From assembly GCA_031969375.1 (NCBI GenBank), contig DALYKJ010000064.1, positions 1 through 31,405 on the forward strand: 31,405 bases of DNA, written 5' to 3'. The translations under genes were made by a program, and so were the position numbers. The stretch comes from Coleofasciculaceae cyanobacterium CTOTU46645. Lineage in GTDB: Bacteria; Cyanobacteriota; Cyanobacteriia; Cyanobacteriales; Coleofasciculaceae. Positions 462 to 19,810 of this stretch are shown here, in pieces; the first letter of the stretch is position 1; each line of letters starts with the position of its first letter. Below the pieces are notes generated by a model. It had not been told where the DNA came from. It worked only from the letters and a program-made list of their open reading frames with translations, and ran no database searches.

Positions 462-597
462 AAGTTGCTAGTTACAAATATTGACTGTTAGATCCCCCCT
501 AGCCCCCCTTTTTAAGGGGGGAAATAGATTCAAAGTCCCCCTTAAAAAGGGGGATTTAGGGGGATCGACAAGATCTAAACTCATAACTAGCAACTTG
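462..597. mobile_element. MITE-like element, copy A, about 136 bp. It has 13-bp terminal inverted repeats AAGTTGCTAGTTA / TAACTAGCAACTT. Its subterminal repeats are GATCCCCCCTAGCCCCCC / GGGGGATTTAGGGGGATC. The interior holds G5/C5 hairpins (CCCCCTTAAAAAGGGGG).
   Basis: Inverted terminal sequences read directly from the sequence. The same termini and internal hairpin units recur at 17084-17389 and, degenerate, at 19628-19810. No coding capacity. Confidence 0.8.
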
Positions 598-688
598 GGT
601 TATATAGTTGATACTCCCCACGAAAAAGCGACGGGGCTTCCAGCCTTACCGCCGCTTTTTTCTAACGCTAGGTTGGAGTGTCAAGAAT

Positions 689-892
689 CTAACTTAAGCG
701 TTTGGCTTCTACCGTCTGCGGTAATTTTAATGGCTCCATTAAATTACTAAGTTCTAATTCCCAACCATTAGCTAAAGTCAAAATTTTATTTCCATTTAAG
801 TCTGTCTCGCTCACTACTTCCTCTTCCAAGTCTTTCTTCGCCACATAAGCCATTAATTTGCCAGTTGTCCCGCGACGTAACATTACTTTCAT
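689..892 (-). CDS. nifT: NifT/FixU, a small nitrogen-fixation protein
   Basis: The 67-aa ORF starts MKVMLRRGTTGKL and contains YVAKKDLEEEVVS and a C-terminal LPQTVEAKRL. This matches the NifT/FixU family signature (Azotobacter NifT: MIRR..G.L..YIAKKDLEEPVVS...VEARRL). It lies immediately downstream of nifZ on the same strand. Confidence 0.9.
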   Translation of the reverse strand: MKVMLRRGTTGKLMAYVAKKDLEEEVVSETDLNGNKILTLANGWELELSNLMEPLKLPQTVEAKRLS

Positions 893-904
893 CTTTGAAT
901 TACC

Positions 905-1171
905 TCAAACTCCGGTTTCTACTGCTTCTAATTCTTTGCCACGACAACCGATAACATAGCCTGTTCCCAGAAAATGGACGGCGTAAATATAGGAATTCTG
1001 CAAAAATGTTCCGATAGAAATTACATAGCCAATTTCCCCTTTTTTTGCTAAAGTTGCTCCAATTTCTTGACCTGGAAAAGTGCCATCATTACGGATTAAC
1101 TTCCTCGTTTTGACTTTTTCCCCAATTTCAAAACGTGGCGGCAAGTCAAGTTCTAATTCATCTGGCTGCAT
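905..1171 (-). CDS. nifZ: NifZ
   Basis: The 88-aa ORF has the NifZ motifs PRFEIGEKV..IRNDGTFPG, KKGEIGYV, FLQ..YIYAVHF and IGCRGKELE. It lies 4 bp downstream of nifV on the same strand. Confidence 0.9.
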   Translation of the reverse strand: MQPDELELDLPPRFEIGEKVKTRKLIRNDGTFPGQEIGATLAKKGEIGYVISIGTFLQNSYIYAVHFLGTGYVIGCRGKELEAVETGV

Positions 1172-1175
1172 GGAT

Positions 1176-2309
1176 TTACCTCACTTGGAGAACTAAATTT
1201 AGGAGTTCTTCATCAGTAATACTGTGCTTAGATTGTACGGCGCGATCGCGGACTGCTTGTAAAAGTGACTCTGTTTGTTCCCTGTTAAGCGTTACGCCAC
1301 GTTCTGCCATAAAATTGTTAATTAAGTGTTTACCGGAATGTTTTCCCACTACCAAACGGCGTTCCCATCCGACATCTTTGGGGTCAAAAGGTTCGTATGT
1401 GAGGGGGTTTTGTAGGACTCCATGGGCGTGGATACCTGATTCGTGGGCAAAGGTATTTTCTCCGACAATTGCTTTCCAAGGTGGCACGGGACAATTAGAA
1501 GCTTTTGCAACCATACGAGACAATTCTAGTAGATGTTTGGTATCGATACCAACATCAATTTTATAGATACACTTCAGTGCCATTACTACTTCTTCTAATG
1601 CCGCATTCCCTGCTCTTTCTCCTAACCCATTGACAGTAGTATTTACTGATAATGCACCTGCTTTAATTCCAGCTAAGGCATTAGCAGTTGCCAATCCCAA
1701 ATCGTTATGAGTGTGCATCTCGACGGGAATAGATAGGAAAAAGACAAGTTTGCTGACTTTTTGATAAGTAGTGATGGGATCGAGAATCCCGACTGTATCG
1801 CAAAATCGAAATCTAAAAGCACCCCATTCTTGGGCTGCTAAGGCTACATCTAAGAGGAAATTTTCATCAGCTCTAGAAGAATCTTCGCCGCCAACTGATA
1901 TCGCTAATCCACAATCGAGGGCATAGTTAATGGTATCTCGCAACCGTTCCAACATTGTCCGCCACTGTCCGTGAAATTTGGCAGCTATTTGGATTTCCGA
2001 GACGGGTACAGAGATATGTACTCGCTGCAAACCGCAGGCGATAGAAGCGCGAATATCCGATGCTACAGCACGATTCCAGCCTAGTAGTTTAGCATTCAGA
2101 CCGAGATCTGCGATCGCTCGAATTGCTTTGGCTTCATCTTGTCCCATGACAGGAATACCAACTTCTAATTCTTGCACGCCGATGGCATCGAGAAAAGTTG
2201 CGATCGCAACTTTTTCTTCCACATTAAAAGCAACCCCTGCTGCTTGTTCCCCATCTCGCAGGGTAGTATCGTTAATCTGAATCGCTTTAGTTATAGTTGG
2301 TTCCTTCAT
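1176..2309 (-). CDS. nifV: Homocitrate synthase NifV (HMGL-like / IPMS family)
   Basis: 377 aa. The N-terminal TLRDGEQ motif and the HTHNDLGLATANALAGIKAGA motif are typical of homocitrate and isopropylmalate synthases. The nifV-nifZ-nifT order is diagnostic. Confidence 0.92.
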   Translation of the reverse strand: MKEPTITKAIQINDTTLRDGEQAAGVAFNVEEKVAIATFLDAIGVQELEVGIPVMGQDEAKAIRAIADLGLNAKLLGWNRAVASDIRASIACGLQRVHISVPVSEIQIAAKFHGQWRTMLERLRDTINYALDCGLAISVGGEDSSRADENFLLDVALAAQEWGAFRFRFCDTVGILDPITTYQKVSKLVFFLSIPVEMHTHNDLGLATANALAGIKAGALSVNTTVNGLGERAGNAALEEVVMALKCIYKIDVGIDTKHLLELSRMVAKASNCPVPPWKAIVGENTFAHESGIHAHGVLQNPLTYEPFDPKDVGWERRLVVGKHSGKHLINNFMAERGVTLNREQTESLLQAVRDRAVQSKHSITDEELLNLVLQVR

Positions 2310-2380
2310 TTTTACCCCTCAATGGATGCACCATTAACTACCAGATTTTCTTGTCCTTATTCATTGTCTTCTTTCTTAAA

Positions 2381-3142
2381 TTAATCACCCTTAACGACTG
2401 AGATTTTCATACTCATTAATAGTTCTTCTAATTGCTCAATCCGATCTAATAATCTGCGGATCTCGATCGCTTCCACATCCGGGATTTGTCCATGTTCCAG
2501 AGGATTATTTAGCTGAGGAAAAGGACAAATATTTCTCCCAGGAATTCCTACTACTGTACATTCTGATGGGACATCTTTTAAGACAATGGAACCTGCACCA
2601 ATCCGCACATTATCGCCAATGTTAATATTACCCAAAACTTTTGCCCCAGCACCGACAACAACAGAGTTACCAAGAGTCGGATGACGCTTACCACTTTCTT
2701 TGCCCGTCCCCCCCAGAGTCACGCCCTGATAAATTAGCGTGTAATCTCCCACAATTGCTGTTTCCCCAATTACTACTCCCATCCCATGATCGATAAATAC
2801 TCCCTTTCCCATCACTGCACCAGGGTGAATCTCAATACCTGTAAACAACCGTGTCAGGAAAGAAATCAGACGAGGGAAAAACGGAATTTTTTGATTGTGT
2901 AACCAGTGGGAAATCCGATGGAGTTCCAAAGCGTGAAACCCTGGATACAAACAAATAACTTCCAGCCAATTACGAGCCGCAGGATCCCGCTCAAAAATAA
3001 TCTGGAAATCAACTTTGATTGTTTGCCACCAGTTGAGAAATGAATAATGTACTGCTGCTTGAGGAGTTTTACCACCTTCAGCATACAGTTTTTCTGGTGC
3101 AATGGGTTTAACTGCTAACCAAGGGGCAAAAGTCTGTAACAT
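2381..3142 (-). CDS. cysE: Serine O-acetyltransferase (nif-associated cysE/nifP)
   Basis: 253 aa. The C-terminal left-handed beta-helix carries hexapeptide repeats (GETAIVGDYTLIYQGVTLGG...GAGAKVLGNINIGDNVRIGAGSIV). The N-terminus is SAT-like. It sits directly upstream of nifV, as in other cyanobacterial nif clusters. Confidence 0.88.
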   Translation of the reverse strand: MLQTFAPWLAVKPIAPEKLYAEGGKTPQAAVHYSFLNWWQTIKVDFQIIFERDPAARNWLEVICLYPGFHALELHRISHWLHNQKIPFFPRLISFLTRLFTGIEIHPGAVMGKGVFIDHGMGVVIGETAIVGDYTLIYQGVTLGGTGKESGKRHPTLGNSVVVGAGAKVLGNINIGDNVRIGAGSIVLKDVPSECTVVGIPGRNICPFPQLNNPLEHGQIPDVEAIEIRRLLDRIEQLEELLMSMKISVVKGD

Positions 3143-4339
3143 TGCTTTCCGGGGATTGAAAAAGCCATAATCTTTATCTCCTGCTTATATCAGATCCTTA
3201 AAACTTAGGCAGTTTACCTCACCCAGATTAAACTAATTAAAATAATTAAAACTGTACTCATGCCCTGAATTCCTTGATACTCAAGGGATTATTTTTTTTT
3301 TCGGGCTATAGGTACGAGTATTTTTGCCTATAGGGATGAGTATTTATCGACCAGGAAATCAGTATTTATGCACTCAGGCACAAATCCCCTGTTTGTAAGT
3401 ATTTGAGGCTATTTTTGTGGTTACCCTGGAGGATAAAAAGATTGTACTCATATCTGAAAACAGCGGTATCAGTGAGTTGGATCAATTTTAAAGTTTTTGT
3501 ATATCTAATTACTTTTTCCCAGTAAATGTCTTAAAGTAGAAGTAGCAAAGATAATTTTTGTGCAGAACTTGCTCTAACAACAATATCAAAATCAAATTTA
3601 TTTCTGTATCGCAAGCTACAAGTTAAATAAAATGTTAAGGAACGATCAAAAAAGACCAAAACAAACAAAAAAATGATATCTTAGATACAGAATTAAATTT
3701 TCAAAAAAGTATGGAGTTCTGAGTACAAGTCAAACTAGTTCAAAAATCATAAAAAACACCATCAAACCATTATGGAAACTGGGTTTGAGCTGAGTACAGG
3801 AATACCCAATATCCACCACATAAATACTTGTACCTCAAGGAAAAAATACTCGTACCTATAGCCCAAAAAATTTTTTCAAATTTCTTTGCTGCCCATCCCA
3901 TAAGGATTAGCGGGTTTTGAGTACAGCCTTAATCAATTTAATAAGTTTTATCCCTAGCCGTCTTTTCCCTCCTCAATTTCGCGGCTGCTATAAATTTCAT
4001 AACGCCAGATGCTTAACCCGCCAAAGGTAATCGGTATTTGGGAGTTGGTAAATTCAAACCTTACCAAAAGCCAAATAACCAATGGATTCTGGGAGAAGTT
4101 AATGGAGACAAATTGGACTAGGACATGTTTTCTATTCTTTGTGGGGGCGTTTTCCTTTGCGTTTAGATACAAAACCTTGTGTTTAAGCGATGAATTATCG
4201 CCCAAATGCAATTCCTTCTATTGCTACTCCTTTACTACTGCCACACCATCAACTCGCATTTGAAGGAACGCCCCCTCAATTTATCACTTTGAAGACACGC
4301 TCTAGCCTCGTCATCAATGAATAAACAAAATAATTACGT
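3143..4339. promoter_or_regulatory. Divergent cysE-nifV / nifB intergenic control region of 1.2 kb. It is AT-rich. A 23-bp inverted-repeat pair (3303-3325 versus 3842-3864) flanks about 540 bp. The octamer TGAGTACA / TGTACTCA is iterated at 3253, 3443, 3720, 3791 and 3918.
   Basis: No credible ORF is present; the 84/85-aa ORFs at 3954-4263 overlap each other antisense and look spurious. The repeats were read directly from the sequence. The position between divergently transcribed nif operons implies promoters and activator sites. Confidence 0.6.
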
Positions 4340-5845
4340 TTGTTCATATTTCCTGTAGCATTTACCAGTCAACTTAATCCCAGAAATTCAATGACACCTC
4401 AATCTGGAACCCTCACTAAACCAAGCACAATTCAATCTAGCGGCTGTAGTTCTTCTAGCTGTGGCACTTCTACTGAAGGAATTGATGAAAAACTAAAAAA
4501 GCGGATTGAAACCCACCCTTGTTATAGCGAAGAAGCACATCATCACTATGCCAGGATGCACGTTGCCGTTGCCCCTGCTTGCAATATTCAATGTAATTAT
4601 TGTAATCGCAAATACGACTGTGCTAACGAAAGTCGTCCCGGCGTAGTTAGTGAATTACTGACACCTGAAGAAGCAGCCCATAAAGTATTAGTAATTGCCG
4701 GGAAAATTCCCCAGATGACAGTGTTAGGAATTGCTGGACCTGGTGACCCCCTAGCAAACCCTGAAAAAACCTTCAAAACCTTTGAATTAATTGCCGACAA
4801 AGCCCCAGATATCAAACTTTGTCTATCTACTAATGGTTTGATGTTACCCGATTACGTGGATCGGATTAAGCAACTCAATGTGGATCACGTCACCATTACT
4901 ATTAATATGGTGGAACCAGAAATCGGGACACAAATCTATCCTTGGGTGCGCTATAGAAACAAGCGCTACACAGGTATTGAAGCCGCCCGGATTCTCCACG
5001 AAAGACAAATGGAAGGCTTGCAAGCACTTCAAGAAGCCGATATCCTTTGTAAAGTGAACTCAGTCATGATTCCGGGAATTAATGACCATCATTTACCCGC
5101 AGTAAATGAAGTTATTCGTTCCAAAGGGGCATTTCTCCACAATATTATGCCCCTAATCTCGGCACCAGAACATGGTACATATTTCGGTTTAAATGGTCAA
5201 CGCGGTCCAACACCAAAAGAACTGAAAACAGTGCAAGATAACTGTGCTGGCAACATGAAAATGATGCGCCACTGTCGTCAATGTCGAGCCGATGCTGTTG
5301 GTTTATTAGGTGAAGATCGCAGCCAAGAATTTACTAAAGATAAATTCTTAGAAATGGAGCCAGAGTACAATATTGAAGCACGGCAAGAAGTTCATGCTGA
5401 CATTAAGAAGTTCAAAGAAGAACTGAAATTAGCCAAAGCCAAAATCAAGCCAACTCAAAAAGTGGCTGACAGTCCTAAAATTCTCGTTGCAGTAGCCACT
5501 AAAGGCGGCGGGTTAGTGAATCAACACTTTGGTCATGCCAAAGAATTCCAAATTTACGAAGTAGATGCTAACGAAGCCAAATTTGTTGGTCATCGCAAAA
5601 TAGATCATTACTGCCAAAGCGGTTATGGCGAGGAAGCTACTTTAGAACACACGATTAAAGCCATCTCTGATTGCAAAGCGATTCTCGTTTCTAAAGTAGG
5701 CGAATGTCCCAAAGCAGATTTACAAGCAGCGGGTTTAATTGTGGTAGAAGCTTACGACGTAATTGAGAAAGTTGCCCGGGCATTTTATGACCTCCATATT
5801 CTCAAAACAGCTAATCCCATTCCTGAGATTGTCGGTTGTTTGTAA
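4340..5845 (+). CDS. nifB: FeMo-cofactor biosynthesis radical-SAM protein NifB, with the C-terminal NifX/NafY-like domain. The likely true start is the ATG at 4391 (MTPQSG...).
   Basis: The radical-SAM cluster motif [14 protein letters not shown] and the motifs [29 protein letters not shown] and [10 protein letters not shown] are present. The C-terminal about 100 aa resemble the dinitrogenase FeMo-cofactor-binding domain. Confidence 0.93.
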
Positions 5846-5881
5846 TTAACAAGTATTGTTCATTGGCATGAGGTATAGCAT

Positions 5882-5904
5882 TGCTAACTGCTAATTGCTA
5901 ATTG
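5882..5904. repeat. STRR-like heptamer tandem repeat (TGCTAAC/TGCTAAT, 3 units)
   Basis: Direct reading of the nifB-nifS spacer. Confidence 0.6.
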
Positions 5905-5996
5905 TGAATGGTGTACCTCATCCAATTGAAGATTCCTTACTAATTTCCAATTCTCTATTCCCTAGCCCTTCCCGCTGTAAATCTGAGGATAAGATC

Positions 5997-7205
5997 GTGT
6001 CAAATTGTATTTACCTAGACAACAACGCCACAACCAAAGTAGATCCCATAGTATTGGAAGCAATGCTACCCTACTTAACCGAAAATTATGGTAATCCCTC
6101 CAGTATGCACACCTTTGGAGGAAGAGTAGGAAAAGCAGTCAAACAAGCCAGAGAACAAGTAGCAGGTTTGTTAGGTGCCGATGATGTAGAAATTATCTTT
6201 ACCAGTTGCGGCAGTGAAAGCAATAATACAGCCATTAGAGCTGCATTAGCTGCCCAACCAAATAAACGACATATTATTACCACTCAAGTCGAACACGCCT
6301 CTGTCACTAATCTTTGCAAACATTTAGAAAAACAAGGTTACACAGTTACTTATCTATCTGTTAACCGTCAGGGGCAATTAGATTTAATGGAATTGGAAGC
6401 AGCATTAACTGGAAACACAGCCTTAGTTTCCACCATGTATGCTAACAACGAAACCGGGACAATTTTCCCCATCGAACAAATCGGTTCCTTGGCTAAAGAA
6501 TATGGTGCAACTTTCCACGTTGATGCAGTTCAAGCCGTAGGTAAAGTTCCTCTCAATATGAAGAACAGTACCATTGACTTACTAACTCTATCCGGACATA
6601 AATTACACGCCCCTAAAGGTATTGGTGCTTTATATGTCCGCAGAGGTTTCCACTTCCGTCCATTACTAATAGGTGGACATCAGGAACGGGGACGGAGAGC
6701 TGGAACCGAAAATGTACCAGGAATAATTGCTTTAGGGAAAGCCGCTGAACTCGAATTATTACACATACCAGAAGCAACAAAACGGCAAAATCAATTAAGA
6801 AATCGCCTAGAACAAAACCTCCTCCTGAATATTCCTGATTGTGAAGTAAATGGCGACACAGCCCATCGCTTACCTAACACTACTAATATTGGCTTTAAAT
6901 ACATTGAAGGTGAAGCAATTTTACTTTCATTAGACAAATACGGAATTTGCGCTTCTTCTGGTTCCGCTTGCACTTCTGGATCTTTAGAACCCTCTCACGT
7001 TTTACGTGCCATGGGCTTACCCTATACAATCCTTCACGGTTCCATTCGATTCAGTCTTAGCCGTTACACCACTGATGCGGAAATAGATCTAATTTTAACT
7101 GTAATGCCAGGAATTATCGAACGTCTCCGTGCCCTTTCACCCTTCAACAATGACAATGCTGAATGGTTACAAGATAGAGAAGAAGCTGTAGCAGTTAGCA
7201 GATAA
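5997..7205 (+). CDS. nifS: Cysteine desulfurase NifS (class V aminotransferase). Probable GTG start at 5997; the ORF is open from 5895.
   Basis: CIYLDNNATTKVDP, the PLP-lysine region SGHKLHAPKGIGALYVR, and SSGSACTSGSLEPSHVL containing the active-site Cys. The N-terminal 34 codons of the open frame are unconserved. AGGATAAG lies 8 nt before the GTG. Confidence 0.9.
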   Translation: MSNCIYLDNNATTKVDPIVLEAMLPYLTENYGNPSSMHTFGGRVGKAVKQAREQVAGLLGADDVEIIFTSCGSESNNTAIRAALAAQPNKRHIITTQVEHASVTNLCKHLEKQGYTVTYLSVNRQGQLDLMELEAALTGNTALVSTMYANNETGTIFPIEQIGSLAKEYGATFHVDAVQAVGKVPLNMKNSTIDLLTLSGHKLHAPKGIGALYVRRGFHFRPLLIGGHQERGRRAGTENVPGIIALGKAAELELLHIPEATKRQNQLRNRLEQNLLLNIPDCEVNGDTAHRLPNTTNIGFKYIEGEAILLSLDKYGICASSGSACTSGSLEPSHVLRAMGLPYTILHGSIRFSLSRYTTDAEIDLILTVMPGIIERLRALSPFNNDNAEWLQDREEAVAVSR

Positions 7206-7224
7206 AACAGACAAAAAAGTAGGT

Positions 7225-7280
7225 CTGAACTCCGAATTCCGAACTCCGAACTCTGAACTCCGAACTCCGAACTCCCAATT
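7225..7280. repeat. STRR heptamer tandem repeat (CCGAACT/CTGAACT family, 8 units)
   Basis: ctgaact ccgaatt ccgaact ccgaact ctgaact ccgaact ccgaact cccaatt, read directly between nifS and nifU. Confidence 0.85.
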
Positions 7281-7308
7281 ACCACTTCATTTAATTTGGA
7301 AAACTGAT

Positions 7309-8214: not shown

Positions 8215-8233
8215 AAAGTCAAAAGATCTTTTC

Positions 8234-8268
8234 AGCCAATTAGCGATTAGCCATTAGCCATTCCTAAC
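8234..8268. repeat. STRR-like heptamer repeat (TAGCCAT/TAGCGAT, about 5 units)
   Basis: agccaat tagcgat tagccat tagccat tcctaac in the nifU-nifH spacer. Confidence 0.7.
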
Positions 8269-8429
8269 TACCAGAATAATTATGAAAGTTCAAACAAGTT
8301 ACATAGATGCGCGTTCCCCCCCAAAGGGATAGGTTTCAGACTCCAACTTTCAGCATTGAAACTACTCTCTGAAACTGCCACATCACAACCTCTCCTCAAA
8401 CAACAAACCTATTCATTGATAAAGGATAA

Positions 8430-9338
<909 letters not shown>

Positions 9339-9372
9339 ACCCTAGATACTCATGTTTGGTAGGGTGGGGATT

Positions 9373-9420
9373 GCCAGCTAAAACTAAAGTTAGCTTTTCT
9401 GATTGCAGCAAGCAATACCC
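9373..9420 (+). other. Nested stem-loops in the nifH-nifD spacer: GGGGATTGC...GCAATACCCC enclosing AGCTAAaactaaagTTAGCT.
   Basis: Inverted repeats read directly. They lie immediately 3' of the nifH stop codon. Confidence 0.45.
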
Positions 9421-9504
9421 CATCCTCAAAAAAGGTTGAAACCCCAGTCGTCAGGGGATAAGGAAAAGAGGTATCAGGACTATTCTCTAATCCCCAATTC
9501 AAAA

Positions 9505-9539
9505 GTTCCTATTTTCTATTCCCTATTCCCTGTTCCCTA
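9505..9539. repeat. STRR-like heptamer repeat (TTCCCTA family, 5 units)
   Basis: gttccta ttttcta ttcccta ttccctg ttcccta, just upstream of the nifD start. Confidence 0.75.
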
Positions 9540-11041: not shown

Positions 11042-11199
11042 ACCACACAGAGTAGGGGAACACTACTAAGGATGGATTTAAAGTTTAAATTTCCCAAGAC
11101 TATCTCTTTACTTTCATCTTTAGTCCCTCCTCAATCCCCGTTTTTTGTTATTTCCAATTCCCTACACAACACTCCCCTATAAATATTGGAGAACGAGTC

Positions 11200-12738: not shown

Positions 12739-12747
12739 GTAGGAATT

Positions 12748-12789
12748 GGGGAAAGAGAAATAGCGATCGCAACAAACTTCTCTTTCCCC
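12748..12789 (+). terminator. Perfect 12-bp stem (GGGGAAAGAGAA / TTCTCTTTCCCC) with an 18-nt loop, 10 nt after the nifK stop. Probable nifHDK transcript 3' end or stabilising hairpin.
   Basis: Inverted repeat read directly. It is followed by a T/C-rich tract. Confidence 0.55.
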
Positions 12790-12904
12790 TTCTCTCTATC
12801 CAGCAGATTTTCTCACAAGTTGCTCTCCCAGATAGTAGTTTCTCACTCCCCTTTGACTATCTACTATCTTTTCCTCCTATTCCTTAGTCCTCTCCGCGAT
12901 TCCT

Positions 12905-13234
12905 ATGTCTACCATCACCCACACGCACCACCACAATTCTCATCACCATTCCCTAATTCCTAGAGAAAAAGCTGGTTTTGATCTTCTCTTCCCCTTGCGT
13001 CGATGGGTAGATAGAGTTCAGGTTGGTAATCGCAAATTCGCCCATCTCATTTGTCAGATTATTCCTTGTTGTTGTCCCTTTGAACGAGACATCAATTTAT
13101 TCGGAAAAACCCACCACATTCCGCCTCTGTGTAAATTAAATCCTCTCTATGACGAGTTTGTCGGTTTACGCTTCCGTGCCCTGAATTATTTAGCAGATGT
13201 TTGTCAAGAAGATATCACAATATACATCTGTTAA
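12905..13234 (+). CDS. Conserved small nif-cluster protein, probably of the Mo-dependent-nitrogenase C-terminal-domain family. It has a His-rich N-terminus (HTHHHNSHHH) and a Cys-rich core (IPCCCPFERD).
   Basis: 109-aa ORF at the conserved cyanobacterial position between nifK and nifE. The family assignment is from memory of that gene context and the Cys pattern, not from a search. Confidence 0.5.
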   Translation: MSTITHTHHHNSHHHSLIPREKAGFDLLFPLRRWVDRVQVGNRKFAHLICQIIPCCCPFERDINLFGKTHHIPPLCKLNPLYDEFVGLRFRALNYLADVCQEDITIYIC

Positions 13235-13312
13235 ATAACCATAATAAGTAGTTGTCTTTTACCAGAAGAATTGGTTTGAAGCACTGTCATTCTAGGACTG
13301 TTTTTCTGCCAG

Positions 13313-13354
13313 TTGTCACCTGTCAACTGTCACCTGTCAACTGTCACCTATCAC
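13313..13354. repeat. STRR heptamer repeat (CTGTCAA/CTGTCAC, 6 units) immediately upstream of nifE
   Basis: ttgtcac ctgtcaa ctgtcac ctgtcaa ctgtcac ctatcac. The same heptamer family recurs at 26727-26768 and 31379-31405. Confidence 0.85.
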
Positions 13355-13358
13355 TCCT

Positions 13359-14741
13359 ATGAAAATTACTCAAGGCAAAATTAACGAACTACTCAGTGAG
13401 CCAGGTTGCGAACACAATCATCACAAACATGGGGAGAAAAAGAATAAATCTTGCCAACAACAAGCCCAACCTGGTGCAGCTCAAGGTGGATGTGCTTTTG
13501 ATGGTGCAATGATTGCTCTAGTACCAATTACCGACGTAGCACATCTAGTTCACGGACCGATCGCCTGTGCAGGAAATTCTTGGGGGAGTCGGGGCAGTCT
13601 TTCCTCTGGTTCTCATCTATATAAGATGGGTTTTACGACAGATTTAAGTGAAAATGATGTTATTTTTGGTGGAGAAAAACGACTCTATAAGGCTATTTTA
13701 GAAGTCCAACAACGCTATCAACCCGCTGCTGTTTTTGTTTATGCCACTTGCGTGACTGCCTTAATCGGAGATGACTTAGATGCCGTTTGCGAAGCGGCAG
13801 CTAAAAAGATAGGAACTCCTGTAATTCCGGTTAATTCACCCGGATTTATTGGTAGCAAAAATTTAGGTAATCGCGTCGGCGGAGAATCCCTATTAGAATA
13901 CGTTATCGGTACTGCCGAACCAGAATTTACTACCCCCTACGATATCAACCTGATTGGCGAATACAACATCGCTGGGGAATTGTGGGATGTACTGCCACTC
14001 TTTGAAAAAGTGGGTATTCGCGTCCTCTCTAAAATGACAGGAGATGCCAGATATCGAGAAATTTGTTATGCTCATCGTGCTAAATTAAACGTCACTATTT
14101 GCTCAAAAGCCCTCATTAATATTGCCCGCAAAATGGAGGAACGCTACGGCATTCCCTACATTGAAGAATCTTTCTACGGTGTAGAAGATGTCAACCGTTG
14201 CTTACGCAATATTGCCCTCAAATTAGGCGATTCCCAATTACAAGAAAGAGTCGAAGCACTAATTGCTGAAGAAACTACCAAACTAGATCGAGAATTAGCC
14301 CCCTATCGAGAAAAACTCAAAGGAAAACGAGTCGTACTCTATACAGGAGGAGTAAAAAGTTGGTCAGTTATCTCCGCTGCTAAAGATTTAGGGATGGAAG
14401 TAGTTGCCACTAGTACTAAGAAAAGTACCGAAGAAGATAAAGCCAGAATTCGGGAATTACTAGGAGCAGATGGCATCATGATGGAAAAGGGTAATGCTCA
14501 GGAAATACTCAAAGTAATTGCCCAAACTAAAGCAGATATGTTAATTGCTGGGGGACGGAATCAATACACAGCTTTAAAAGCCAAGATTCCTTTTCTTGAT
14601 ATCAATCAAGAACGCCACCACTCATACACCGGATATGCAGGAATGGTATCCATGGCAAGAGAGTTAGAAGAAGCATTATATAGCCCCATTTGGGCACAAC
14701 TGCGCCAACCTGCACCCTGGGAAAAAGAGGAGGTAATCTGA
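13359..14741 (+). CDS. nifE: FeMo-cofactor biosynthesis scaffold NifE
   Basis: 460 aa and NifD-like, with [23 protein letters not shown] and [12 protein letters not shown]. It precedes nifN with a 1-nt spacer. Confidence 0.95.
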
Positions 14742-14742
14742 A

Positions 14743-16050
14743 ATGGCTACAGTCGCAACCGGAAAAAAATCTGTCGCGGTAAATCCCTTAAAGCAAAGTC
14801 AACCTTTGGGCGCTGCCCTGGCATTTTTGGGATTAAAAGGGATGATGCCTTTATTACATGGTTCTCAAGGATGTACTGCTTTTGCTAAAGTAACATTAGT
14901 CCGACATTTCCGAGAAGCCATCCCTCTTTCCACCACAGCAATGACGGAAGTTACCACAATTTTAGGTGGAGAAGATAATGTAGAAAAAGCAATTTTAACT
15001 TTAGTAGAAAAATCTAAGCCACAAATAATTGGTCTTTGTACCACAGGCTTAACAGAAACGCGAGGCGATGACATGGAGGGAATTCTTCGCAGTATTCGCA
15101 AGCGTCACCCAGAATTATACGATTTACCTATCGTATTTGTTTCAGCCCCAGACTTCCGAGGTGCATTACAAGATGGTTTTGCGGCTGCGGTGGAAAGTAT
15201 GATGCGGGAATTACCACAAACAGGTGAAACTCGTCACCATCAAGTGACATTATTAGTTAGTTCCGCTTTTACTCCTGGTGATGTTCAAGAAATTAAAGAA
15301 ATTATCACCGCTTTTGGACTCGTACCAATTGTTGTACCCAATCTATCGGGTTCTTTAGATGGGCATTTAAGTGATTCTTTTAGTCCAGTAACGACGGGAG
15401 GTACGACTTTAGCAGAATTACGAGAAATTGGTACTTCTGTCTATACAATTGCCCTCGGCGAAAGTATGCGCGAAAGTGCCAAAATTCTAGAAAAACGCTT
15501 TGGAATTCCTTATGAAGTATTTAGCAACTTAACTGGATTGGGCGCTGTAGATGAATTTATGCAAGGACTTTCCGATCTCAGCGGTATTCCTGTACCAGAT
15601 AAATATTGTCACCAACGCCGTCAGTTACAGGATGCAATGTTAGATACTCATTTTTATTTTGGACACAAACGAGTATCTTTAGCATTGGAACCAGATTTGT
15701 TATCTCCAATTGCTTGGTTATTACATGGAATGGGGGCAGAAATACAAGCCGCAGTAACCACAACCAAATCGCCTTTACTAGAAACACTCCCAGTAGAAAC
15801 AGTAACAATTGGCGATTTAGCGGATTTTGAGGAACTTGCAGTAGGTTCAGATTTATTAATTACCAACTCTTACGGTGCAGACATCTCTCGCCGCCTGAAT
15901 ATTCCTCTCTATCGCCAAGGTTTCCCCATTGTAGATCGTTTGGGTAACGGTCAACGTTGCACCGTTGGCTACCGGGGTACAACACAGCTTTTATTTGAGA
16001 TTGGGAATTTGTTTTTAGAACAAGAAGAATCAAGCCATTCAAAATCTTAA
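14743..16050 (+). CDS. nifN: FeMo-cofactor biosynthesis scaffold NifN
   Basis: 435 aa and NifK-like, with NPLKQSQPLGA, HGSQGCTAF and CTTGLTETRGDD. Confidence 0.93.
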   Translation: MATVATGKKSVAVNPLKQSQPLGAALAFLGLKGMMPLLHGSQGCTAFAKVTLVRHFREAIPLSTTAMTEVTTILGGEDNVEKAILTLVEKSKPQIIGLCTTGLTETRGDDMEGILRSIRKRHPELYDLPIVFVSAPDFRGALQDGFAAAVESMMRELPQTGETRHHQVTLLVSSAFTPGDVQEIKEIITAFGLVPIVVPNLSGSLDGHLSDSFSPVTTGGTTLAELREIGTSVYTIALGESMRESAKILEKRFGIPYEVFSNLTGLGAVDEFMQGLSDLSGIPVPDKYCHQRRQLQDAMLDTHFYFGHKRVSLALEPDLLSPIAWLLHGMGAEIQAAVTTTKSPLLETLPVETVTIGDLADFEELAVGSDLLITNSYGADISRRLNIPLYRQGFPIVDRLGNGQRCTVGYRGTTQLLFEIGNLFLEQEESSHSKS

Positions 16051-16175
16051 CCACTGACATCATTGAGATGATTAGATTAGTGAATAATTAGGGGGAGGAG
16101 GGCGGGTGAATAGGAGGACTTTTAATTGACTATAACTTGGTTATTGTCTGATATTTCAGCAGGAGAAAGAAAGCG

Positions 16176-16595
16176 ATGAGAATTGCCTTCACTACTAGCG
16201 ATAACGTTCACATCAATGCCCACTTTGGTTGGGCAAAAAAGATAGATGTCTATGAAGTTTCCACCGAGGGCTATCAATTCTTAAAAACCCTCAAATTTGA
16301 TGGAGATCTCAAAGAAGATGGTAATGAGGATAAACTTTTACCCAAAATTGAAGCCCTCTACGACTGCACCATTGTTTATGTTTCTGCCATTGGAGGTAGT
16401 GCCGCTGCCCGTTTAATTAAAAAACGGATTACCCCTGTTAAGGCACAATCTGAGGAACAAGAAATTACCGATGTTCTCACTAAATTAGTTGCTACCTTAA
16501 ATGGAAATCCTCCTCCTTGGTTGAGGAAAGTCCTGCAACAACAACAACAGTCCACATTTTTAGATCGATTAGAAGAGGAAGCTACCCCTGTATGA
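16176..16595 (+). CDS. nifX: NifX (FeMo-cofactor carrier, NifX/NafY family)
   Basis: 139 aa starting MRIAFTTSDNVHINAHFGWAKKIDVYEV, which is the family motif. It follows nifN. Confidence 0.9.
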   Translation: MRIAFTTSDNVHINAHFGWAKKIDVYEVSTEGYQFLKTLKFDGDLKEDGNEDKLLPKIEALYDCTIVYVSAIGGSAAARLIKKRITPVKAQSEEQEITDVLTKLVATLNGNPPPWLRKVLQQQQQSTFLDRLEEEATPV

Positions 16596-17068
16596 CTACC
16601 ACTCAAACTATTGCTGAACCCACTAAGCTAGAAATTCTGGAACATCCTTTTATTCAGGAAGTAATTCGCCAAATTCGGGCAGAAGATTCCTATGGCTTTT
16701 ACCGTAATTGGACAGATGAATTAATCCTAAAACCATTCATTGTTAGTCGGGAAGCCAAACGGAAAATCTCCGTTGATGGTGATGTGGAACCGAATACCAA
16801 GGGAAGAATCCAGTTATTTTATCGCGCCATTGCCGCACAAGTGGAAAAAGAAACTGGGTTACTTTCCCAAGTAGTAATTGATTTAAGTCACGAAGGCTTT
16901 GGTTGGGCGTTAGTTTTCTCTGGTCGTCTTTTACTAGTGGCGAGAACCTTACGAGATGCACAACGGTTTGGTTTTGATTCCTTTGAAAAATTAGCTGCTG
17001 AAGGGGAAAAGCTAACTAAATCTGGTATTGATTTAGCCAAACGCTATCCTGACATTGGCGGACTTTAA
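16592..17068 (+). CDS. NifX-associated nitrogen-fixation protein (DUF269 family). Its start overlaps the nifX stop (ATGA).
   Basis: The ORF is open from 16517. An in-frame ATG at 16592 overlaps the nifX TGA, which is a classic sign of translational coupling. This is the conserved position after nifX in cyanobacterial clusters. Confidence 0.75.
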   Translation: MTTTQTIAEPTKLEILEHPFIQEVIRQIRAEDSYGFYRNWTDELILKPFIVSREAKRKISVDGDVEPNTKGRIQLFYRAIAAQVEKETGLLSQVVIDLSHEGFGWALVFSGRLLLVARTLRDAQRFGFDSFEKLAAEGEKLTKSGIDLAKRYPDIGGL

Positions 17069-17083
17069 TTCAGTAGTTAATGG

Positions 17084-17389
17084 AAGTTACTAGTTACAAA
17101 TATTGACGGTTAGATCCCCCCTAGCCCCCCTTAATAAGGGGGGAATTAGACTCAATTTTCTCCTTCTTAATAAGGGTACAAAATGAAGTCAAAATCCTCT
17201 TTTTGAAGGTAAGAAATAGACTAAAAGCCCCCTTATTAAGGGGTGTAACTGGACTCAAAGTCCCCCTTATTAGGGGGTGTAACTGGACTCAAAGTCTCGC
17301 TTATTAGGGGGTGTAACTGGACTCAAAGTCCCCCTTATTAAGGGGGATTTAGGGGGATCAAAAATATCTAAACTCACAACTAGCAACTT
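17084..17389. mobile_element. MITE-like element, copy B, about 306 bp. It has the same termini as copy A and carries an internal array of three 34-bp tandem units (CCCCTTATTAGGGGGTGTAACTGGACTCAAAGTC).
   Basis: Terminal sequences AAGTTACTAGTTACAAATATTGACGGTTAGATCCCCCC ... GGGGGATC..AACTAGCAACTT, read directly. It is inserted between the DUF269 and DUF683 genes inside the nif operon. Confidence 0.8.
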
Positions 17390-17444
17390 GGGTTATTTAT
17401 GATGCGTTAGCTCGCCCATAGCACCCTACATAAAGGAGACAAGA

Positions 17445-17681
17445 TTGATGGTTCAAGCAACGGAAACAGCCCCAATTAACCTTACTGTTGAGGAGTTAAA
17501 AGCCCAAATTAAACGACTCAATAGCAAAGCCGGACAACAAAAAATGGATCTTCACGATTTAGCGGAAGGTTTGCCAACAAATTATCAACAATTAATGGCA
17601 ATGGCAGCCGAAACCTACGAAATATATCGTCAACTAGATGAACTCAAACAACAACTAAAAATCAAGGAGAAAAACCAATGA
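17445..17681 (+). CDS. Small nif-cluster protein (DUF683-type nitrogen-fixation protein)
   Basis: 78 aa, predicted helical. It occupies the conserved position between the DUF269 gene and nifW. Its stop overlaps the nifW start (ATGA). Confidence 0.65.
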   Translation: MMVQATETAPINLTVEELKAQIKRLNSKAGQQKMDLHDLAEGLPTNYQQLMAMAAETYEIYRQLDELKQQLKIKEKNQ

Positions 17682-17995
17682 GTACCACCTGGTATGATTT
17701 TAGAAACCTGACCGATGCCGAGGATTACTTCAAGTTTTTTAACTTGAGCTACGATCCCAAAGTTGTCAATGTCAATCGCCTCCATATTTTGAAGAAGTTT
17801 TCTGAACTTGTCCAAGAAATTGATGCTAATTCAACGGAAGAAGATCGAGAAAAAAAATTCGACTTGTACAAGGCTGCACTGCAACAAGCTTACCAAGTGT
17901 TTCTGACTTCCACCTCTTTAGATCAAAAACTGTTTAAAGTATTTAATCAGAAACCTAACAATGTGGTTTTACTAGCAGAAATTAATGCTGATTAA
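17678..17995 (+). CDS. nifW: Nitrogenase-stabilising/protective protein NifW
   Basis: 105 aa. The AEDYFKFFNLSYDPKVVNVNRLHILKKF motif is characteristic of NifW. Confidence 0.9.
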   Translation: MSTTWYDFRNLTDAEDYFKFFNLSYDPKVVNVNRLHILKKFSELVQEIDANSTEEDREKKFDLYKAALQQAYQVFLTSTSLDQKLFKVFNQKPNNVVLLAEINAD

Positions 17996-18006
17996 GGAGA
18001 AATAAG

Positions 18007-18837
18007 GTGCTACAACTCACCGCCAAAGAATTAGAACGCTACCGTCGCCAAATTATGCTATCAGGTTTTGGAGAAGCGGGGCAAAAACGACTCAAATCAT
18101 CCACTATATTAGTGACAGGTGTTGGTGGTTTAGGTGGCACTGCTGCACTTTATTTAGCTGTTGCAGGTGTGGGGCGATTAATCCTAGTTAGAGGCGGTGA
18201 ATTGCGCCTAGATGACATGAATCGTCAGATTTTAATGACTGACGATTGGGTGGGTAAACCGAGAGTTTTTAAAGCTAAAGAAACTCTGGAGGAAATTAAT
18301 CCAGATGTCCAAATTGATGCTATCTGTGAATATGTAACTCCTGAAAATGTTGACGCTTTAGTACAATCTGCCGATCTAGTCCTTGACTGTGCCCATAATT
18401 TCATTGAACGGGATTTGTTAAATGTGGCTTGTGTCCGCTGGAATAAACCAATGGTGGAAGCAGCGATGAACGATATGGAGGCATATTTAACCACAATTGT
18501 TCCGGGACAAACGCCTTGTTTATCCTGTATTTTCCCGGAAAAACCAGATTGGGATAAGCGCGGCTTTGGGGTTTTAGGCGCAGTGTCGGGAACTCTTGCT
18601 TGTTTGACAGCTTTAGAGGCAATTAAGTTAATAACTGGTATTGGCAAACCGCTATTATCTCAATTGCTAACCATGGATTTAGCCACTTTTGATTTTGCGA
18701 AACGTCGCCCTTACCACGATCCTAATTGTCCAGTTTGTGGCGATAAATATCGAGAGATATTGGAAAAGAATGTGGGTTCAGATTCCGTATTTTCTAGCAC
18801 TAAAGTGCTTACTACGAACTTTCCCATAAGTTTGTAG
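18007..18837 (+). CDS. hesA: HesA (MoeB/ThiF-type E1-like adenylyltransferase). GTG start.
   Basis: 276 aa. The nucleotide-binding motif VTGVGGLGGTAALYLAVAGVGRL and the CxxC pairs (CLSC, CPVCG) are present. The SD AGGAGAAATAAG precedes the GTG. It lies after nifW as in Anabaena. Confidence 0.9.
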   Translation: MLQLTAKELERYRRQIMLSGFGEAGQKRLKSSTILVTGVGGLGGTAALYLAVAGVGRLILVRGGELRLDDMNRQILMTDDWVGKPRVFKAKETLEEINPDVQIDAICEYVTPENVDALVQSADLVLDCAHNFIERDLLNVACVRWNKPMVEAAMNDMEAYLTTIVPGQTPCLSCIFPEKPDWDKRGFGVLGAVSGTLACLTALEAIKLITGIGKPLLSQLLTMDLATFDFAKRRPYHDPNCPVCGDKYREILEKNVGSDSVFSSTKVLTTNFPISL

Positions 18838-18899
18838 TAGGCACTTTAGTGCCTCTCTCTCCCTTATCTTAATTACTCATACTTAACCAGGAGTTTTCT

Positions 18900-19271
18900 A
18901 TGACATTAACACTGACAGAAGTTGCTGAATTACGCCTTCGTGCCTTTCTCCAAGGTTCCGCTAAAGGAGAAAATCAAGTACAACGGGGTGTTCGTTTTTC
19001 TGTTGTTGATGGCGGTTGTAGTGGCTATCAATATTCTTTGGATATAACCAACGAACCCAATCCCGATGATTTGTGCGAACAACAGGGGAAAATTCGAGTT
19101 TATATTGACAAAGAAAGTGCCCCATTATTGGAAGGTGTGGTGGTTGATTATGTGGATGGATTAACTCAAAGTGGCTTTAAATTCTTGAATCCTAATGCTA
19201 CTGATACCTGTGGCTGTGGGCAATCTTTCCAAGCTGGTAATTGCACTCCTACTGGTGTCCCTTGCAGTTAA
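18900..19271 (+). CDS. hesB: HesB (IscA/SufA-type Fe-S assembly protein)
   Basis: 123 aa. GGCSGYQY and the C-terminal CGCGQSF are the A-type carrier Cys motifs. Confidence 0.92.
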   Translation: MTLTLTEVAELRLRAFLQGSAKGENQVQRGVRFSVVDGGCSGYQYSLDITNEPNPDDLCEQQGKIRVYIDKESAPLLEGVVVDYVDGLTQSGFKFLNPNATDTCGCGQSFQAGNCTPTGVPCS

Positions 19272-19314
19272 GCTATCGCTGATTTTTCCTTTACAATTTT
19301 CAAGGAGTTGACAG

Positions 19315-19614
19315 ATGACTACTTATAATGTCCGCTTGATTAGTAAGAAGTATAAACTTGATATCACTATCCCTGTCGCCGAAGATCAATATATCCTGAA
19401 AGCGGCAGAAGAAAATGACTTAGATTTGCCTTTTTCCTGTGGTTCAGGTTCTTGTTCCAGTTGTGTTGGTAAACTAATGGAAGGGACAGTCGATCAATCA
19501 GATCAGGTATTTTTAGATGACGAACAAATGAGCAAAGGATTTGTACTTCTCTGTGTAGCTTACCCTCGCTCTGATTGTACGATTCGTACTCATCAAGAAG
19601 CCTATTTAGTTTAA
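19315..19614 (+). CDS. fdxH: Plant-type [2Fe-2S] ferredoxin, FdxH-like
   Basis: 99 aa. [12 protein letters not shown]...[17 protein letters not shown] is nearly collinear with Anabaena heterocyst ferredoxin FdxH. Confidence 0.92.
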
Positions 19615-19627
19615 CAGTTATTAGGGT

Positions 19628-19810
19628 AAGTTTTGATCCCCCCTCACCCCCCTTAATAAGGGGGGGACTAGATGAAAATCAACCTGATTAAGGGGGAAAT
19701 GGAAGGAAATTAACCTGATTAAGGGGGGAAATATAAAGTCCCCCTTAATAAGGGGGATTTAGGGGGATCTAAAATGTTTAACTTCATAACTACCCACTTA
19801 ACTTAATAGC
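19628..19810. mobile_element. MITE-like element, copy C, with degenerate termini. It has the same G5/C5 hairpin units (CCCCCTTAATAAGGGGG) and the subterminal GGATTTAGGGGGATC.
   Basis: Internal units and the 3' subterminal block match copies A and B. The outer TIRs have decayed. Confidence 0.65.

Follow-up and report, generated by a model that had tools for sequence, protein, structure and literature searches.

One closely similar described system is the Nezha MITE, which Zhou, Tran, and Xu reportedly described in 2008 from Anabaena variabilis and Nostoc sp. PCC 7120, with ISNpu3 of N. punctiforme said to have been proposed as its mobiliser. Nezha has its TIR in common with an IS in N. punctiforme (PMC3184786), a Nezha-type consensus from MITE-Hunter measures 135 nt, and a 10-bp direct repeat, CATTATCTAC, is given for one copy of Nezha (PMC6042816). 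The family described here resembles Nezha by description, as a cyanobacterial MITE of approximately 130 to 170 bp with stable secondary structure, AT-rich targets, and a partner IS in N. punctiforme, and its modal TIR-to-TIR length equals the 135 nt of the Nezha consensus (modal sizes of 135 to 144 nt). The 10-bp repeat quoted for Nezha differs from the 5- to 7-bp duplications found here but includes TATCTA, in agreement with the TA(N)TA target form. The TIR string of the present family did not occur in the literature searched. From a comparison of descriptions, it is plausible that the family is Nezha and that its partner is ISNpu3.

Correia/NEMIS elements of Neisseria, ERIC elements of enterobacteria, and RUP elements of pneumococcus are likewise IS derived, 100 to 200 bp long, bounded by TIRs, and flanked by short TA-containing duplications. 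They are also intergenic and cotranscribed, form long hairpins, and are possible RNase targets. In contrast to the present family, RNA processing has been demonstrated for those elements, and their sequences and transposase families are unrelated to those found here; what distinguishes the present family is a modular, expandable G5/C5 hairpin core. That core is like REP/BIME repeats and the cyanobacterial "small dispersed repeats" that Elhai et al. are said to have described in 2008, in being made of GC-rich hairpin units of approximately 21 to 27 nt that are dispersed, nested in larger repeats, and locally amplified. Unlike REP/BIME, the core units have no GTAG/CGTC tags, and in the window they lie inside a TIR-bounded MITE.

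Three related elements in the nif cluster

The window, by which we mean the whole stretch of 31,405 nucleotides that was analysed, contained three small noncoding repeats in the nif cluster that were mutually related, shared one orientation, and fell within 20 kb. We call them copy A (positions 458 to 600, plus strand, 143 nt), copy B (17080 to 17393, plus strand, 314 nt), and copy C (19624 to 19803, plus strand, 180 nt), all shorter than 600 bp. The first-pass annotation had placed all three at the right sites but had drawn their boundaries too tightly, as the true ends lay 4 nt farther out on each side and the outermost bases read AC[G/C/T][Y]...[R]NGT. When up to two mismatches were allowed, the TIR AAGTTGCTAGTTA occurred 8 times in the window versus 0.94 expected, and none of 100 shuffles reached 8. 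A 13-bp TIR had been credited to every copy; it was perfect in both arms of A (13/13; 462 to 474 and 584 to 596) and matched at 12 of 13 positions in each arm of B (17084 to 17096 and 17377 to 17389), but C had lost its left arm and kept a right arm with two mismatches (19787 to 19799). Also as annotated, the subterminal blocks GATCCCCCC and GGGGGATC were found in A, B, and C; the 9-mer subterminal block by itself was no commoner than chance. G5/C5 hairpins were present, with the double core of A at 491 to 566, and their loops were TTAWWAA-like rather than uniformly TTAATAA, a loop that was absent from A. No Rfam family matched at gathering score anywhere in the window, and the single ORF that overlapped any element, at 481 to 750 across A, was a purely mechanical call.

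The wider family and its candidate IS982 partner

The termini recurred in at least 120 genome stretches among the matches listed, nearly all of them cyanobacterial and from many orders, and most had the G5/C5 double-hairpin core. The proposal that the three copies belong to a mobile family had been staked on such recurrence, and it held. Copies were numerous within genomes too, with at least 15 stretches in MAG DALYLM01, which is probably conspecific, and approximately 38 in the cyanobacterial MAG CAYXCW01. The canonical element was approximately 143 nt long, 5′-AC(G/C/T)Y-AAGTTGCTAGTTA...TAACTAGCAACTT-RNGT-3′, and its interior combined short subterminal stretches resembling both ends of the IS with the GC-rich double-hairpin core. 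TIR-to-TIR sizes had their mode at 135 to 136 nt, and the consensus TIR extended to approximately 17 to 20 nt when AC..GT was counted. Perfect target duplications of 5 to 7 bp, of the form TA(N)1-3TA, flanked 54 of 84 complete copies, and none of 85 complete copies lay inside a long ORF. By crude ORF calls and in small numbers, 27 of 45 classifiable copies lay between codirectional ORFs (11 sense, 9 antisense, and 7 unassigned), with no orientation bias.

IS982-family elements are approximately 1 kb long and, as described in ISfinder, have one ORF of approximately 270 to 310 amino acids, 5′-AC ends, and short direct repeats. AC...GT termini are expected for the family and were seen here in both IS and MITEs. 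The MITE ends, ACCCAAGTTGC...GCAACTTGGGT, matched IS982-family insertion sequences in Nostoc punctiforme, N. flagelliforme, Sphaerospermopsis, Calothrix, and Symploca. Five IS copies from five taxa fit the IS982 description in size (1057 to 1110 bp), ORF (274 amino acids), ends (ACCC...GGGT; in full, ACCCAAGTTGC(T/G)(A/G)GTTA...TAACTAGCAACTTGGGT), and direct repeats (5-bp TATTA-type flanks). Their transposase scored 172.5 bits on the IS982-family model NF033520 (cutoff, 130), contained DDE_Tnp_1 domains, and was annotated by PGAP as "IS982 family transposase." The outer ends of the copy on plasmid pNPUN02 of N. punctiforme PCC 73102 (NC_010632.1, 170653 to 171709; 1057 bp; WP_012413301.1) were identical to those of the MITE family (ACCCAAGTTGC..GTTA / TAACTAGCAACTTGGGT), with some subterminal similarity past the TIR at both ends and like TA-rich 5-bp flanks (TATTA). 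Unlike the IS, A, B, and C had no transposase gene; a GC-rich double-hairpin core took the place of the IS interior and was absent from the IS copies examined. An internal-deletion derivative of 232 nt that retained the transposase start codon region was found at locus L018.

The candidates for the autonomous partner sought by the annotation are the IS982 elements with common ends in other taxa; within approximately 1 Mb of fetched loci, tblastn detected no IS982 transposase gene apart from those at L074 and L127. These IS982-family elements are the likely mobilisers of the MITE family. Their transposase would recognise the inverted ends and insert the element at TA(N)1-3TA, duplicating 5 to 7 bp of target. 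The family combines the attributes of an IS-derived, "type I" bacterial MITE, being small and noncoding, with TIRs, a target duplication with an empty and a filled site, dispersed copies, and ends common to an autonomous IS. We conclude that A, B, and C very probably belong to a MITE family that arose from a cyanobacterial IS982-family IS and is moved by it in trans, with the insertion history and transcriptional read-through described below. The element is of a known kind and of modest interest, and nothing about it is unexpected for MITE-rich cyanobacterial genomes; its defined ends, target, and partner should aid repeat annotation in cyanobacteria.

The hairpin core also occurred between unrelated inverted repeats in Nostoc sp. 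C052 and Kovacikia.

All 33 of 33 core matches on cyanobacterial plasmids lacked TIRs, and those plasmid cores, together with the cores found within another inverted repeat, indicate that the core and the IS982 ends may have had different histories. Moreover, half-cores stood alone in the window (26378 to 26412, minus strand; a single C6/G6 hairpin with GGGGGGAT and no TIRs) and at loci L013, L046, and L070; cores were nested in hairpin loops at L055, L064, L114, and L125; an element at L034 had identical TIRs and no core; and hairpin units had been amplified independently within copies. The core could on this evidence be the actual mobile or selected unit, REP-like or akin to the small dispersed repeats, that spreads or is captured on its own and for which IS982-type ends are one of several vehicles, a reading we hold to be unlikely. 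Approximately 87% of cores were TIR associated (111 of 127 scorable half-core signatures, in TIR-selected loci), neither a duplication nor an empty site has been demonstrated for the core alone, and decayed MITEs could account for the cores without TIRs. We think it less likely again that the core, GATCCCCCC-TAR-CCCCCC-loop-GGGGGG ... CCCCC-loop-GGGGG-ATTTA-GGGGGATC, is autonomous cargo that passes among, or has been captured time and again by, MITE families with unrelated ends, that is amplified unit by unit within each copy, and that could have an RNA processing or stability role where cotranscribed, as in the nif spacers. If so, the hairpin rather than the transposon ends would have been propagated or selected across cyanobacteria. 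The identity of A, B, and C as MITEs would be unaffected, as B went in as a whole TIR-bounded unit.

Insertion history of copies A, B, and C

Copy A, with ends ACGT...GGGT, lay 3′ of nifT (689 to 892, minus strand), as had been noted, and was flanked by convergent genes. A copy elsewhere, at locus L051, matched it at 98.7% identity across 151 nt and had a perfect TACTTA duplication. A belongs to a recently active subfamily. The flanks of A differed (TAGTTA at 452 to 457 and TATATA at 601 to 606); those of A and of C had a TA...TA frame in common but no matching duplication longer than TA. Recombination between copies, rather than transposition, could have brought A into its present context. 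Abutting A was a solo element end, ACTC-AAGTTGTTAGTTA (441 to 457, plus strand), the remnant of an older copy, whose TAGTTA was the apparent insertion target of A. Nesting of this kind, with TAGTTA duplicated, was also found at L101, L062, L123, and L113.

Copy B occupied the spacer between the DUF269 gene, which ends at 17068, and the Rop-like DUF683 gene, which starts at 17448. Its terminal bases were mutated, with ATGG in place of ACGY, and its target-site duplications, TAGTTA on the left (17074 to 17079) and TATTTA on the right (17394 to 17399), differed by one change. A sister lineage with 94% HesA identity had a clean empty site at this position, in which a single TAGTTA was followed directly by TGGTGCGTTAGC, and comparison with that site indicated that B had inserted as an entire TIR-bounded unit. 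The reported amplification of an internal 34-bp unit in B was borne out by a tandem array of hairpin-plus-linker units (17219 to 17345, plus strand; 3.8 copies, 91% matches). Hairpin units of approximately 34 bp were amplified independently in other expanded copies, at L112, L047, and L106, each with its own linker variant. The number of such units would rise and fall locally, with slippage between C5/G5 runs as the probable cause.

Copy C, an immobile fossil, lay between the end of fdxH at 19614 and the start of a 2[4Fe-4S] ferredoxin gene at 19867. Approximately 22 nt had been deleted from its left TIR region, leaving only AAGT of the left arm, and its flanks retained a possible duplication (TATTA at 19619 to 19623 and TAATA at 19804 to 19808). 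The three had been set down as one old, degenerate copy and two intact ones, and "two intact" was an overstatement, given the mutated ends and TIR arms of B and the absence of a matching duplication around A. The truncated left end of C was also present in the sister lineage, and thus B is the younger insertion and C the older. More distant relatives with the same gene order lacked both B and C, and C was missing at 83 to 87% HesA identity. C would have inserted first and lost its left end later, with B arriving after the sister split. We conclude that B, as judged from the filled and empty sites, inserted only after this lineage and its nearest sampled relative had diverged; the precise absence of B where truncated C was already in place directly supports the repeated colonisation that had been suggested for this locus. 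The filled and empty pair dates one insertion in a conserved nif array, with true ends, a TA(N)1-3TA target, and an IS982-type partner defined.

That three copies in one orientation should share a 20-kb cluster might point to nif-specific structured regulatory elements or to assembly artefacts rather than mobile DNA. B and C were identical across every independent assembly compared, however, and A occurred in each, differing by one or two substitutions. In four runs, contigs assembled from short reads ended inside B, and others ended inside A, as expected for a multicopy repeat. Both explanations are next to impossible, and we rejected them on the recurrence of hundreds of copies with target duplications at unrelated loci in many genera and on the empty site of B. 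For annotation, the three "odd" nif spacers are transposon insertions, not regulatory RNAs, and they account for the breaks and misjoins of the lineage's short-read assemblies there.

RNA structure and transcription through the nif spacers

Two copies, B and C, had been assigned to a nifB-to-fdxH transcriptional array; the array ends with fdxH, and C sits beyond that gene. In A. variabilis, the cluster is driven mostly from the nifB promoter, and how long a transcript persists is determined by processed 5′ ends that bear stem-loops (PMC4284476). By analogy with A. variabilis, we infer that the B and C spacers are cotranscribed in the present host, which is filamentous and nonheterocystous. The expectation that the copies fold into stable RNA hairpins was upheld for A (−73.6 kcal/mol, z = −9.2) and B (−114 kcal/mol, z = −4.6), and the fold of C was weak, barely better than that of shuffled sequence (z = −2.2). 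No intrinsic terminator, that is, a GC-rich hairpin with a U-tract, was found on the plus strand of B or C, the minus strand of the two had only weak candidates, and no sense-strand promoter-like site was detected in either. Given the absence of a sense-strand U-tract and the frequent siting of the family between codirectional genes in either orientation, RNA polymerase most likely reads through B and C. The RNA of both would form long stable hairpins that act at most as processing or stability elements and not as terminators. We conclude that A, B, and C are ordinary mobile-DNA litter from an abundant and widespread cyanobacterial miniature transposon, with no sign so far of halting transcription.

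One way in which B and C could matter is as coopted RNA processing or stability modules. Once cotranscribed, the long hairpins would be cleaved by RNase III or RNase E, or would shield 3′ or 5′ ends, so that the nifENX-DUF269, DUF683-nifW-hesAB-fdxH, and downstream ferredoxin segments would no longer have coupled mRNA abundances. The very stable structures predicted for A and B and the half-lives fixed by stem-loop-bearing 5′ ends in A. variabilis (PMC4284476) are consistent with such a role, RNA effects of this kind are reviewed for MITEs (PMC3049150, PMC3733652), Correia/NEMIS and ERIC elements behave so in other bacteria, as do native stem-loops at the nifH and fdxH processing sites of Anabaena, and C has been kept since before the sister-lineage split. 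The absence of B from the nearest relative, and of both from others with the same gene order, means that neither is needed for nif expression; moreover, C hardly outfolds shuffled sequence, and the family has no orientation bias between codirectional genes. On balance, we consider cooption unlikely. B provides a natural experiment, as a very stable hairpin array of 314 nt is present in the DUF269/DUF683-nifW spacer of one lineage and absent from its sister, and transcript processing could be compared directly between them given cultures or metatranscriptomes.

Alternatively, B, C, or both might be terminators or attenuators that divide the nif array, as they contain tandem GC-rich stems of 5 to 6 bp and BIME-type repeats attenuate within operons (PMC3049150). 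The sense-strand hairpins lacked a T-run, however, the antisense candidates were weak, and the family was inserted without orientation bias. Moreover, DUF683 and nifW were intact and conserved though no promoter of their own was detected in or after B, and termination is very unlikely when set beside read-through. Across 23 contigs, the Rop-like protein encoded 3′ of B did not vary, and the Shine-Dalgarno region of its gene was conserved beside the insertion.

A mobile repeat family in the nif cluster

Direct reading of the regions and alignment confirmed that three related elements are present in the nif cluster, as the first-pass annotation had proposed; with their ends revised (see below), they are copy A (458 to 600), copy B (17080 to 17393) and copy C (19624 to 19803). 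The 13-nt terminal inverted repeats (TIRs) that had been ascribed to all three were perfect in A (arms at 462 to 474 and 584 to 596), but B carried one mismatch in each arm (17084 to 17096 and 17377 to 17389), and C had lost most of its left arm, reduced to AAGT by a deletion of approximately 22 nt, and retained only a degenerate right arm (19787 to 19799). With up to two mismatches allowed, the TIR motif occurred at eight sites in the window where 0.94 were expected, and no shuffle reached eight. Common to A, B, and C were the blocks GATCCCCCC-TAG/TCA-CCCCCC-loop-GGGGGG and CCCCC-loop-GGGGG-ATTTA-GGGGGATC. The same family also contributed a solo element end that directly abuts A (441 to 457) and a solo half-core (26378 to 26412). 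Rfam returned no match anywhere in the window at gathering thresholds.

The gene neighborhoods had also been assigned correctly, as judged by Pfam. Copy A is located 3′ of nifT (689 to 892, minus strand), with a convergent unknown ORF (22 to 423) on its other side. Copy B sits between the DUF269 gene, which ends at 17068, and the Rop-like/DUF683 gene, which starts at 17448, and copy C sits between fdxH, which ends at 19614, and a 2[4Fe-4S] ferredoxin gene, which starts at 19867.

The canonical element was predicted to fold as a single long RNA rod (for A, −73.6 kcal/mol, z = −9.2). The predicted fold of B was −114 kcal/mol (z = −4.6) and that of C was weak (z = −2.2). Amplification of an internal 34-bp unit in B was confirmed as a tandem array of 3.8 units (17219 to 17345), upstream of which lie older, decayed hairpin units. 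Other expanded copies (L112, L047, L106, L080, L023, and L084) contained hairpin-plus-linker repeats of approximately 33 to 35 nt, each with its own linker variant, and thus unit amplification is recurrent, arises copy by copy, and is not peculiar to B. At another locus (L115, approximately 1140 to 1400, minus strand), a half-element comprising the left end and first hairpin was triplicated in tandem with an 85-nt period.

The family terminus, also given as ACNNAAGTTGCTAGTTA, was not specific to this locus. A scan for AAGTTGCTAGTTAYRARTWT using one genome per species found it in at least 120 genome stretches. Apart from a handful of chance or simple-repeat matches in other phyla, the matches listed came from cyanobacteria of many orders, including Microcystis, Symploca, Floridaenema, Microcoleus, Microseira, Spirulina, [Phormidium], Anabaena, Dolichospermum, Cuspidothrix, Sphaerospermopsis, Mastigocoleus, Calothrix, and several metagenome-assembled genomes (MAGs). 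Nearly all cyanobacterial matches listed had the TIR motif followed by the same core, a G5/C5 double hairpin, and the modal arm-to-arm distance among them was 135 to 136 nt, exactly that of copy A. The bases directly outside the annotated TIR were also conserved, as TAAC-G/C-Y at one end and TAACCC at the opposite end. With the element boundaries moved 4 nt outward (AC..GT), a perfect 5- to 7-bp flank match of the form TA(N)1-3TA appeared in 54 of the 84 complete copies listed. Since the match includes the variable middle bases, the flanks are true target site duplications and not extensions of a palindrome. We conclude that the elements belong to a mobile family, as had been suggested, rather than representing a structure confined to the nif locus. 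A partial family copy was also observed in the divergent nifP-nifB intergenic region of Floridaenema flaviceps BLCC-F50 (L010, approximately 5700 to 5830), which, being in the nif cluster of another genus, indicates an independent insertion into such a cluster.

Insertion history at the nif locus

The window encodes a HesA protein with 100% identity to its counterpart in "Cyanobacteria bacterium UBA11149," and the nearest relatives were non-heterocystous filamentous organisms such as Kamptonema, Phormidium/Oscillatoria, and Oscillatoriales USR001. A sister lineage with 94% HesA identity was represented by Logan assemblies of SRR10571246/49/50, and its DUF269-DUF683 spacer was only 59 nt long. 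There, the sister sequence ...TAGTTA|TGGTGCGTTAGC... aligned with ...TAGTTA[ATGG-AAGTTAC ... CAACTT-GGGT]TATTTA|TGATGCGTTAGC... in the window. The alignment of empty and filled sites sets the bounds of B at 17080 and 17393, with a 6-bp duplication that later acquired one substitution, and indicates that B entered after the two lineages split. Copy C was already present in the sister lineage and was truncated alike at its left end, the sister contigs ending inside C. C is therefore the older copy and B the younger, which supports the earlier proposal that the locus was colonized repeatedly. In relatives at 83 to 87% HesA identity, short unrelated spacers occupied the positions of both B and C.

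Copy A shared 98.7% identity across 151 nt with a copy at another locus, in MAG DALYLM01 (L051), that has a perfect TACTTA duplication. The flanks of A itself differ (TAGTTA and TATATA). Both this and the solo end abutting A are consistent with A having inserted into TAGTTA within the TIR of an older copy, and later decay or rearrangement would account for the mismatch between the two flanks. Such nesting was also found at L101, L062, L123, and L113.

Two contigs joined family copies to other sequence. In DOVO01000260.1 (GCA_003520045.1; L143, 1790 to 1945), from the window's lineage, the nifT side of A was joined to the flank of the L051 locus, which places both loci in one population. Either the contig is a chimera assembled through the near-identical copies, or a real MITE-mediated recombination or rearrangement has occurred. 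In ENA ERZ27299535 metagenome contig k119_253993 (L002/L135, 430 to 480), other sequence stood upstream of the GATCCCCCC block of B, with no left TIR and no end of the DUF269 gene, probably owing to a chimeric join through the repeat.

A probable IS982-family partner and a shared core

In a Calothrix MAG, the family ends bracketed 1.1 kb containing a decayed transposase gene, and blastn with this element found intact relatives on plasmids that are annotated as IS982 family. The copy on pNPUN02 of Nostoc punctiforme was 1,057 bp long, was bounded by ACCCAAGTTGCGGGTTA... and ...TAACTAGCAACTTGGGT, and had a perfect duplication of TATTA. The same ends and TA-rich flanks were shared by insertion sequence (IS) copies from N. 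flagelliforme, Sphaerospermopsis, and Symploca. The 274-amino-acid transposase contained DDE_Tnp_1 domains and scored 172.5 bits against the IS982 family model NCBIfam NF033520 (cutoff, 130). At E ≤ 1e-50, its clade comprised more than 2,200 cluster representatives, the majority of them from Nostocales. Similarity to the IS ends extended beyond the TIR, the subterminal bases of the MITE being TGAGTTTAG on the right, against TAAATTTAGG and TGAGGAAG in the IS, and CAAATAT on the left, against CAAAATAC and TCAAATAC. A 232-nt internal-deletion derivative in Spirirestis (L018) retained the transposase start region. No tblastn match to an IS982 transposase was obtained in the retrieved pieces of a probably conspecific MAG, and when proteins were searched with the transposase, most matches came from Nostocales and none could be attributed to UBA11149.

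IS630/Tc1-like mobilization, which was considered because of the apparent TA flanks, was rejected in view of the IS982 partners, the AC...GT ends, and a duplication length of 5 to 7 bp. The elements showed each of the five defining features tested, and we conclude that A, B, and C are classical IS-derived bacterial MITEs, a known kind of element.

An unusual IS982 copy was observed on a Sphaerospermopsis kisseleviana plasmid (L142, 174 to 1335), where an extra inverted copy of the right end, 96 nt outside the left end, creates a perfect 42-nt inverted repeat. The arrangement could be an intermediate toward MITEs with two like ends.

The core also occurred without IS982-type ends. All 33 cyanobacterial plasmid matches of copy A found by blastn contained the core only and never the TIRs, and the search yielded no copies from Anabaena/Nostoc PCC 7120. 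Such cores were present in Synechocystis PCC 7339 (L128), Nostoc sp. C052 (L129), Leptolyngbya BL0902 (L130), and Kovacikia minuta (L150, 19940 to 20140). An unrelated inverted repeat, AGARGATGTTTGAAAAGT.. and ..AGGACTTTTCAAACAYCCTCT, enclosed the core in Nostoc sp. C052 and Kovacikia, and thus the same core is carried by MITEs with different ends; this second TIR type had no match in the window. Conversely, a contig from a MAG labeled Aquificota, which may be mis-binned, contained the same TIRs and a 7-bp TATTATA duplication around an AT-rich interior without the G5/C5 core (L034, 4662 to 4805). TIR-less cores and a core-less copy together suggest that the core may be a module shared or captured among MITE families, which recalls the "small dispersed repeats" reportedly described by Elhai et al. 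in 2008. This reading leaves the assignment of A, B, and C as it stands.

Literature searches with the TIR and core strings returned no relevant paper. The closest named element, compared by description only, is Nezha, an element of approximately 130 to 170 bp found in A. variabilis and PCC 7120 that has a TIR in common with ISNpu3 of N. punctiforme (PMC3184786). By that description, size, host range, and N. punctiforme partner all fit the family in the window, but one Nezha copy is quoted with a 10-bp direct repeat (PMC6042816), in contrast to the 5- to 7-bp duplications found here. For MaeMITE, the Microcystis genome paper gives sizes and no sequences. The nearest functional analogues are Correia/NEMIS, ERIC, and RUP.

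Expected effects on nif expression and other repeats

In Anabaena variabilis, the nifB promoter drives most of the nif cluster, hesA has a separate promoter, and the 5′ ends of nifH and fdxH are processing sites with stabilizing stem-loops (PMC4284476), a pattern that need not hold for the non-heterocystous organism of the window. The sense strands of B and C contained neither a hairpin followed by a T run nor a promoter-like site, and the Shine-Dalgarno region and downstream genes were intact and conserved. No NtcA-type GTA-N8-TAC site was seen by eye in the element ends, which contained GTA-N10-TAC only. None of the 85 complete copies listed interrupted a long ORF, and by a crude ORF-based tally 27 of 45 classifiable copies were flanked by co-directional ORFs, and these 27 showed no bias in orientation (11 sense, 9 antisense, and 7 unassigned). 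Frequent co-directional placement and intact genes argue that insertion into operon-type spacers is commonplace and apparently tolerated. For B and C, the likeliest outcome would be read-through with, at most, effects on RNase processing or stability, and transcription termination at either copy appears unlikely.

Other repeats were also observed in the window. GTAG-tagged REP-like hairpins (GTAGGGTGCGTTA...TAACGCACCCTAC) occur at 22877 to 22912, 23069 to 23104, and 26692 to 26727, with a decayed copy at 17400 to 17432; one such hairpin is directly beside the target site of B, and the sister lineage (L131) retains it intact. Several nif intergenic spacers (7227 to 7275, 9508 to 9539, 13314 to 13354, 24545 to 24591, 26728 to 26768, and 31380 to 31404) are filled with tandem repeats of heptamers (GAACTCC, CCTATTC, TGTCACC/CTGTCAA, and AATGGGG), which resemble the short tandemly repeated sequences of filamentous cyanobacteria. 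The divergent nifP-nifB spacer contains a 51-nt inverted repeat (3297 to 3347 and 3820 to 3870; 86% complementary, 472 nt apart) made of TAGGTACGAGTATTT-like motifs, which may be paired regulator-binding sites for both promoters or another repeat element. Finally, three tandem repeats of approximately 250 nt with 65 to 86% identity (23260 to 23961) lie inside a long minus-strand ORF (23212 to 24459), which suggests that the ORF encodes a repeat-domain protein.
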